Of a stretch of DNA of 64,000 nucleotides, positions 51,510-51,730 are shown piece by piece. Made by a program: the position numbers and the translations under genes. The DNA is taken from NCBI GenBank assembly GCA_964355175.1, contig CAYHBZ010000002.1, forward strand, positions 268,537 through 332,536. Reading direction: 5' to 3'. The notes under the pieces were generated by a model. That model saw only the letters and a program-made list of their open reading frames with translations. It was not told the origin of the DNA and ran no database searches. Each line of letters begins with the position of its first letter. Position 1 is the stretch's first letter. Source of the stretch: an uncultured Gammaproteobacteria bacterium (GTDB lineage Bacteria; Patescibacteriota; Patescibacteriia; Magasanikbacterales; GWA2-37-8).

Positions 51510-51535
51510 AAAACCCCGACTAGTTCGGGGTTTTT
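51510..51535 (+). terminator. rho-independent terminator after ndk
   Basis: aaaccccgactagttcggggttttt. Confidence 0.7.
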
Positions 51536-51562
51536 GACACTCAGTAAAGCGTATTGTATAAT
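51534..51562 (+). promoter_or_regulatory. perfect consensus promoter (TTGACA-17-TATAAT) with no downstream ORF
   Basis: Exact hexamers and spacing directly after the ndk terminator. Confidence 0.45.
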
Positions 51563-51568
51563 TGAGCT

Positions 51569-51730
51569 GTTCAGTTAAAGGCCAAAAATGTTCTACAATT
51601 TTTCTATTGGATAGTCAATATTTGATCTCCCTGTGGGGAGATCGTGAGGCTAACCGCCCTAAAGTTTAGGGACATAAAGCCTTTAGCTGGATATAAAAAT
51701 CCCTTGAATAATTCAAGGGATTTTTGTTTT
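51569..51730 (+). ncRNA. candidate small structured RNA (~160 nt), promoter-to-terminator unit with no ORF
   Basis: An 11-bp closing stem (cagttaaaggc/gcctttagctg, one G-U) encloses two internal hairpins (gatctccctgtggggagatc; ccctaaagtttaggg). The unit ends in an intrinsic terminator (aaatcccttgaataattcaagggattt + T-run). Confidence 0.3.

Follow-up and report, generated by a model that had tools for sequence, protein, structure and literature searches.

The 64,000-nt stretch of DNA analysed here (the window) carries, downstream of ndk, a gene that very probably encodes a compact, divergent 6S RNA (SsrS) of a member of Candidatus Magasanikbacteria, ultra-small bacteria that have been little studied. 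6S RNA mimics an open promoter and traps RNA polymerase. Our computations show that the window RNA is encoded by an independent gene, that it forms a rod with a bubble and switchable helices, and that it is homologous to curated 6S RNAs through intermediate sequences. By analogy with characterised 6S RNAs, we infer that it binds RNA polymerase and serves as a template for product RNA. An earlier note on this DNA had left two options, a 6S-like RNA or a lineage-specific sRNA. The first is correct, as indicated by the rod with its central bubble, the helices for release and the two family members that score above the Rfam gathering score for 6S RNA. The second holds in the sense of a lineage-specific, divergent 6S subfamily and fails in any other sense.

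The gene is transcribed from the plus strand by a sigma-70-type promoter at 51534-51562 (TTGACA at 51534-51539, a 17-nt spacer and TATAAT at 51557-51562), which is the sole match to all 12 consensus positions between 49000 and 54000. As the earlier note had described, this promoter follows directly on the intrinsic terminator of ndk, a palindromic hairpin on the plus strand (51508-51536) that shares 3 nt with the −35 hexamer and also scores on the minus strand. Going by promoter spacing, transcription would start at about G51569. An RNA of about 165 nt (about 51569-51733) is predicted between this start and the U run of a second intrinsic terminator, and the rod alone takes up about 124 nt of it. 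The second terminator (51693-51733, plus strand) consists of a 16-bp hairpin at 51693-51727 and the U run, and it is bidirectional. A distance of 3 nt separates its hairpin from the stop codon (51730-51732) of the convergent gene for a CxxC protein, the thioredoxin-like neighbour of the earlier note, and both genes share the terminator. Both flanking terminators are A-tract/U-tract palindromes that score on either strand, and this A-run/U-run design recurs in most members of the RNA family. The minimum free energy of the RNA region is −67.3 kcal/mol, compared to −34.6 ± 3.6 kcal/mol for shuffled sequences (z = −9.1).

Two mechanical ORFs are all that the RNA region contains, a 35-aa ORF with a TTG start (51562-51669) and a 29-aa ORF with a GTG start (51644-51733). 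A small protein gene could use either of them, since both exist mechanically, but neither has a plausible ribosome-binding site. The bubble-strand indels of relatives are not multiples of three, and their substitutions preserve base pairs through compensation rather than codons, with no reading frame conserved. Consequently, neither ORF is conserved as coding, and the description of about 160 nt without an ORF stands. We regard the coding of a small protein here as next to impossible.

The window is part of a 464-kb metagenome contig, and the closest relatives of its ndk gene (88% identity) are found in Candidatus Magasanikbacteria genome bins. In genomes and metagenomes of this CPR group, we collected 72 homologues of the RNA (64 distinct). 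The 80 ndk loci taken from GTDB species representatives contributed 21 of them, and metagenome contigs the other 51. Within the 80 loci, a search with nhmmer gave 16 copies of the RNA, each downstream of ndk; 15 of these were used to build a covariance model (R1), which brought the number of loci to 20, and a later, improved model (R2) lifted a 21st locus, L048, to 70 bits. The metagenome members were retrieved by a motif pattern scan that yielded 51 contigs with one match each, all confirmed by the model; selection by this pattern partly builds in, and so inflates, the apparent invariance of the motif positions in these members. For the comparisons below, 41 members with less than 85% identity were taken as representatives.

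The gene unit itself is conserved. Immediately upstream of the RNA, 39 of the 41 representatives have a promoter matching 9-12 of the 12 consensus positions, and the remaining two match 8; an equivalent terminator hairpin lies 3′ of the RNA in most of them. In its usual position, the RNA gene has ndk on one side and either rpmB or the gene for the CxxC protein on the other. At six loci (L017, L022, L026, L027, L094 and L106) it is inverted in place, together with its promoter and terminator, while the order of the flanking genes, ndk and rpmB, is kept. Never did we see a co-oriented gene directly downstream of the RNA in the family loci, which effectively excludes a riboswitch, a leader or a 3′ UTR. 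A cis element, whether a riboswitch or leader acting through the terminator on a downstream gene or a structured 3′ UTR of ndk, would fit the position next to ndk, the terminator hairpin at the RNA's end and the presence of alternative pairings like those of expression platforms. However, the RNA has a consensus promoter of its own, the genes that follow it (CxxC protein gene, rpmB) are convergent, at the six loci the inversion relative to ndk affects only the RNA gene, and the terminator takes no part in the alternative helices. We therefore consider a cis element very improbable and treat the RNA as the stand-alone small RNA that the earlier note had proposed.

The close relatives L010, L015 and L023 have no RNA gene at the ndk locus, where only a terminator-sized gap is found, indicating that the gene can move or be lost. 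Model R2 did not match near ndk in loci from Moranbacteria, Paceibacteria, Falkowbacteria and Minisyncoccus; in these four groups the RNA may lie elsewhere in the genome, or it may be too divergent to detect. At L012 (ndk 74% identical), no 6S-like RNA lies between ndk and the gene for the CxxC protein; positions 3627-3740 are instead taken up by a long inverted repeat (aaaaacacgtaggtcataac ... gttatgacctatgtgttttt) that encloses a GC-rich hairpin.

The rod is built from a closing stem, a downstream helix, a central bubble and an apical arm, all given here on the plus strand. The closing stem, P1, pairs 51569-51582 with 51679-51692 (14 bp, three G-U), and its inner part is the 11-bp stem with one G-U that had already been noticed (cagttaaaggc/gcctttagctg, 51572-51582 with 51679-51689). 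An internal loop, CAAAA (51583-51587) on the 5′ side and AAA (51676-51678) on the 3′ side, separates P1 from the ‘downstream helix’, P2a, in which AUGUUCU (51588-51594) pairs with GGGACAU (51669-51675); the 5′ strand of P2a is the predicted template for product RNA. The central bubble has a 14-nt 5′ strand (ACAAUUUUUCUAUU, 51595-51608) and a 13-nt 3′ strand (GCCCUAAAGUUUA, 51656-51668), the latter corresponding to the ‘−10-like’ strand of 6S RNA. The apical arm (51609-51655), which is 47 nt long in every member, contains P3 (51609-51616 with 51648-51655, including non-canonical pairs at its centre), a conserved internal loop (AAUAUU at 51617-51622 and UGA at 51645-51647) and P4 (51623-51631 with 51636-51644), closed by the loop UGUG (51632-51635). 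Of the two internal hairpins in the earlier note, gatctccctgtggggagatc (51624-51643) is real and represents the apical hairpin P4, with strong covariation. The other, ccctaaagtttaggg (51657-51671), is also present, but its GGG starts P2a as well, and it is therefore an alternative helix outside the ground-state rod.

Covariation supports the rod across the family and, as the earlier note had suggested checking in homologous intergenic regions, the structure is conserved in the 64 distinct sequences. In the alignment of all 72 sequences, 90.4% of the cells in P1, P2a, P3 and P4 are paired (66.9% when shuffled), and both sides change at 28 of the 35 modelled pairs. The covariation score reaches 0.614, compared to 0.186 ± 0.009 for shuffled alignments and 0.08-0.10 when the pairing partners are slid by 1-3 columns. 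By helix, changes on both sides occur at 15 of 15 modelled pairs in P1, at 8 of 9 pairs in P4 and at 2 of the 3 variable pairs in P3. We also compared duplex energies between matched strands and strands taken from different representatives, a co-evolution test that is free of alignment register, and obtained z = −20 for P1 and z = −7.8 for P2a. The two negative controls of this test gave z = −1.4 and +0.8. RNAalifold, applied to the 72-sequence alignment, recovered P1, P3, P4 and a 3-bp CC(C)/GGG helix and did not recover P2a or the collapse helix described below.

The fifth pair of P2a (G51590-C51673) is G-C in 41 members, A-U in 18-19 and U-U in 3, and it is never G-U or A-C; the A-U version also occurs in L003, which is close to the window's group. 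In L048, the whole helix has been swapped in a fully compensatory manner (AUUUCGG/CCGGAAU). The extension of P2a covaries as well, with AAAAC/GUUUU becoming AAUCA/UGAUU in L049 and L068. The flanks of P2a are invariant, and consequently the helix is independent of the alignment. Model R1 had taken as its ground state a three-way junction with GGGACAU paired to the distal 5′ bubble strand. The clean G-C/A-U covariation of P2a and the compensatory changes in L049, L068 and L048 led us to drop it as a ground state, and its helix is kept as a release-state helix.

Across the family, the bubble varies within narrow limits, from 13 to 17 nt in the 5′ strand (mode 15) and from 11 to 15 nt in the 3′ strand (mode 12), and there is no co-evolution between its two strands (z = −1.4). 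Together, the limited lengths and the absence of co-evolution between the strands indicate a rod with an open central bubble that has the size of a transcription bubble. At position 2 of the 5′ strand, 37 of the 41 representatives have a C, 4 have a U and none has a purine, while the adjoining positions are purines. Such an invariably pyrimidine position fits a product RNA that initiates with a purine, and from the sequence we infer that the start site of product-RNA synthesis is C51596.

The 3′ strand of P2a, GGGACAU (51669-51675), is a switching segment: its partner in the rod is 51588-51594, and when that 5′ strand is taken up, it pairs with the strands of the bubble instead. In the window copy, CCCUAA of the 3′ bubble strand can pair with UUAGGG (51666-51671), creating an alternative 3′-bubble hairpin. 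In other lineages, it is the distal 5′ bubble strand that can pair with the 3′ strand of P2a, and at least 12 different sequence solutions exist for this collapse helix (for example ACAUGU/ACAUGU, UUAAUGU/ACAUUAA, AAACUUG/CAAGUUU, AUCAUU/AAUGAU, UUCAUA/UAUGAA and GUAUCC/GGGAUAU). Both alternative helices are mutually exclusive with P2a. A column-based count gives weak support to the collapse helix (65.6% paired), as its register differs between lineages, and for this reason we relied on the matched-versus-mismatched duplex test. The distal 5′ bubble strand and the 3′ strand of P2a had a duplex energy of −5.09 kcal/mol when matched and −2.90 kcal/mol when mismatched (z = −8.3), and none of 2000 permutations did as well; the 3′-bubble hairpin gave z = −2.7.

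Constrained folding shows how close these states are in energy. On average, 1.1 kcal/mol separates the P2a state from the minimum free energy below it, and for many members the prediction puts the collapsed state level with the rod in stability or slightly ahead of it. When 14 nt of the template strand are blocked, mimicking bound product RNA, 36 of the 41 representatives fold into a collapse helix (4 bp or more) or a 3′-bubble hairpin (3 bp or more). Lineages without a collapse helix have 3′-bubble hairpins of 6-8 bp, and the window copy, with its template strand blocked in the same manner, folds into the 3′-bubble hairpin. In characterised systems, product-RNA release of 6S RNA proceeds through a hairpin in Escherichia coli and through a ‘central bubble collapse helix’ in Bacillus subtilis and A. 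aeolicus (PMC8876501).

By analogy with characterised 6S RNAs, the window RNA would act in the following cycle. The rod would mimic an open promoter and fill the active site of the sigma-70-type RNA polymerase holoenzyme, and this capture of polymerase would damp housekeeping transcription when nucleotides are scarce. Once NTPs are available again, the polymerase would use the RNA as a template, from C51596 at the closing-stem end of the 5′ bubble strand into P2a, and would synthesise a product RNA predicted to begin 5′-GUAGAACAUUUUUGG... (also given as 5′-GUAGAACAUUUUU... and 5′-GUAGAACA...). This product RNA would displace the 3′ strand of P2a, GGGACAU. In the window's sublineage, the freed strand would then pair with the 3′ bubble strand in an E. 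coli-type hairpin (CCCUAA/UUAGGG), while in other sublineages it would pair with the distal 5′ bubble strand in a B. subtilis-type ‘central bubble collapse helix’. Either way, the bubble would collapse and the polymerase would be released.

The assignment to 6S RNA depends on relatives of the window copy. A 351-nt search with the window copy gave no Rfam match to 6S RNA, either at the gathering score or at E ≤ 10; the only matches at E ≤ 10 were to rimP, His_leader and sR035, all driven by the two terminators. The earlier note had set aside RNase P RNA, tmRNA and SRP RNA, and rightly so: none has an Rfam match at the gathering score or at E ≤ 10, and ARAGORN finds nothing in 51400-51800. The Rfam scan covered 42 family-bearing loci and the window, with 25 longer family-bearing contigs searched for a canonical 6S gene nearby and smaller contigs in addition. 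Only two loci reached the threshold of the 6S/SsrS model RF00013 (gathering score 46.4 bits), both with matches to the full-length model: L102 at 811-964 (52.9 bits, E = 6.6e-8), over the family match at 819-956, and L129 at 4120-4274 (46.9 bits, E = 5.9e-6), over the family match at 4131-4266. The 16 other small family contigs and the window had no Rfam match to 6S RNA.

L102 and L129 are also recognised by model R1, which was built from 15 other members, at 55.6 and 50.6 bits, respectively. With L049, L068, L095 and L119, they make up a divergent subgroup marked by GGG...CCC. The window copy, itself missed by RF00013, is thus assigned to 6S RNA by transitive homology through L102 and L129, both of which are just above the gathering score. 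The scan that the earlier note had called for therefore returns no family for the window copy and 6S RNA for the relatives L102 and L129. Through this indirect assignment to a known Rfam family, the RNA is not a new RNA class.

The Rfam alignment places corresponding parts of the two families on each other, including the downstream helix, a 16-nt 5′ bubble strand, the GGG...CCC at the base of the apical arm and the CACCUg of the 3′ bubble strand. The signature around the bubble is common to both (GGGag...caCCCACCUg in the Rfam consensus, GG...ACCACCU in our family), and the conserved start of the 3′ bubble strand, (A)CCU, matches CACCUg of the Rfam 6S consensus. In L129, a 4-nt loop stands in place of 31 apical positions of that consensus. 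The features by which a 6S RNA is recognised are found here: a rod with a bubble, a downstream helix that can refold, a pyrimidine in the template and a length of about 165 nt, within a range of roughly 150-200 nt.

A lineage-specific structured sRNA with a function other than that of 6S RNA could be, for example, a base-pairing regulator, with AAAA(C/A)UGUUCUACAA as its seed, or a ligand- or protein-sensing switch between two helices. Such an RNA would explain why the window copy has no Rfam match and why the family's loops (UUCUACAA, AAUAUU, CGUGG and UGNG) are conserved unusually strongly, above the norm for 6S RNA. It would also agree with the predicted minimum-free-energy fold of some members (L022), a collapsed fold that has a three-way junction and keeps the conserved stretch single-stranded. 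However, half of the proposed seed is base-paired in P2a with covariation, and complements of the seed (CUGUUCUACAA) occur in the 64-kb window at chance frequency (18 found, 17.8 expected). Moreover, L102 and L129 pass the curated 6S model over its full length, and the shape of the rod, the dimensions of its bubble and the two release helices all agree with 6S RNA. We consider a non-6S function unlikely, and the 6S assignment is carried forward.

Compared to the 6S RNAs described by RF00013 (E. coli 6S, B. subtilis 6S-1), the window RNA is likewise a stand-alone sRNA gene of the abundant type. It shares their rod of closing stem, central bubble of about the size of a transcription bubble and apical stem, as well as the conserved GG(G)...CC(C)ACCU around the bubble. 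As in known 6S RNAs, the 3′ strand of P2a can refold into a 3′-bubble hairpin (E. coli) or a collapse helix (B. subtilis and A. aeolicus) (PMC8876501). In contrast, the core of the window RNA is only about 124 nt long (about 165 nt with the terminator), compared to about 185-200 nt, and the family's apical arm falls about 26 nt short of the Rfam consensus, so that the ‘−35-like’ contact may be missing. The hairpin of an intrinsic terminator, placed directly next to the closing stem, makes its 3′ end, the family's loop sequences are very strongly conserved, and most of its members, including the window copy, are invisible to RF00013.

Truncated variants of B. subtilis 6S-1 go through the whole 6S cycle in vitro, although with an affinity about 10-fold lower (PMC8876501), which makes a naturally short 6S RNA plausible; those variants are engineered constructs, whereas the window RNA is a natural, conserved gene whose 6S activity is predicted. 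Within the Rfam E-value search of the window copy, no family of the 6S-Flavo type appeared. The 6S-Flavo family itself (RF01685) comprises lineage-specific, divergent 6S-like rods that the general 6S model misses and that were recognised by their structure.

The shortened arm and the two modes of release point to a more specific reading, which we put forward tentatively and with somewhat more doubt than belief. The window RNA would be a miniaturised 6S RNA whose arm ends roughly where the ‘−35-like’ region begins, capture of polymerase would take place through the bubble and the AAUAUU/UGA loop alone, and sublineages within one order would have switched repeatedly between E. coli-type and B. 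subtilis-type release. A natural ‘mini-6S’ of this kind offers a comparison between sublineages that could show which parts are needed to capture and release polymerase.

The 6S assignment would give a function, by homology, to a conserved and unannotated gene of Candidatus Magasanikbacteria. It would also suggest, by the same analogy, that bacteria with very small genomes keep a 6S-type global control of RNA polymerase. In addition, the family exposes a blind spot of the Rfam 6S model, and its 64 distinct sequences and their structure could seed a subfamily model. 6S RNA is widespread, and a new lineage-specific subfamily will therefore not surprise a specialist; of more interest is that the RNA is naturally miniaturised, with an apical arm of 47 nt and a rod of about 124 nt, that both putative release mechanisms are represented in closely related lineages, and that it occurs in CPR bacteria. 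A literature search on 6S RNA in CPR, Patescibacteria or Saccharibacteria found nothing relevant, though its coverage was incomplete and it is weak evidence of novelty.

Several other elements of the window were recorded. On the minus strand, 10017-10085 matches model R1 weakly (18.4 bits, E = 0.84); it shares AAAAUCUGUUCUAAAAA, is without the entire apical arm, and was treated as a chance match. A ribosomal protein L10 leader (Rfam RF00557, 66.8 bits) lies at 58298-58457 on the plus strand, and it is also found in nine related contigs, indicating that the Rfam models of some RNA families work on these genomes. An 84-nt tRNA with a long variable arm occupies 49158-49241 on the plus strand (Rfam tRNA, 51.6 bits), and a 119-aa mechanical ORF on the minus strand (49160-49519) that overlaps it is probably spurious.

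The 120-aa product of the convergent gene downstream of the RNA (51730-52092, minus strand) combines an N-terminal hydrophobic segment with a CPHC motif. No precomputed Pfam family is assigned to it, and its match to Glutaredoxin is below threshold (E = 0.01, 16.5 bits with a cutoff of 22.9). The upstream gene, ndk (50877-51482, plus strand), matches Pfam NDK with E = 4.7e-39. Its product has 201 aa, and the NDK model (135 positions) matches it in two separate stretches, so that the enzyme carries an insertion of roughly 50 residues. All 80 relatives align with the product over about 195-201 residues, and the long form of NDK is therefore common to them.
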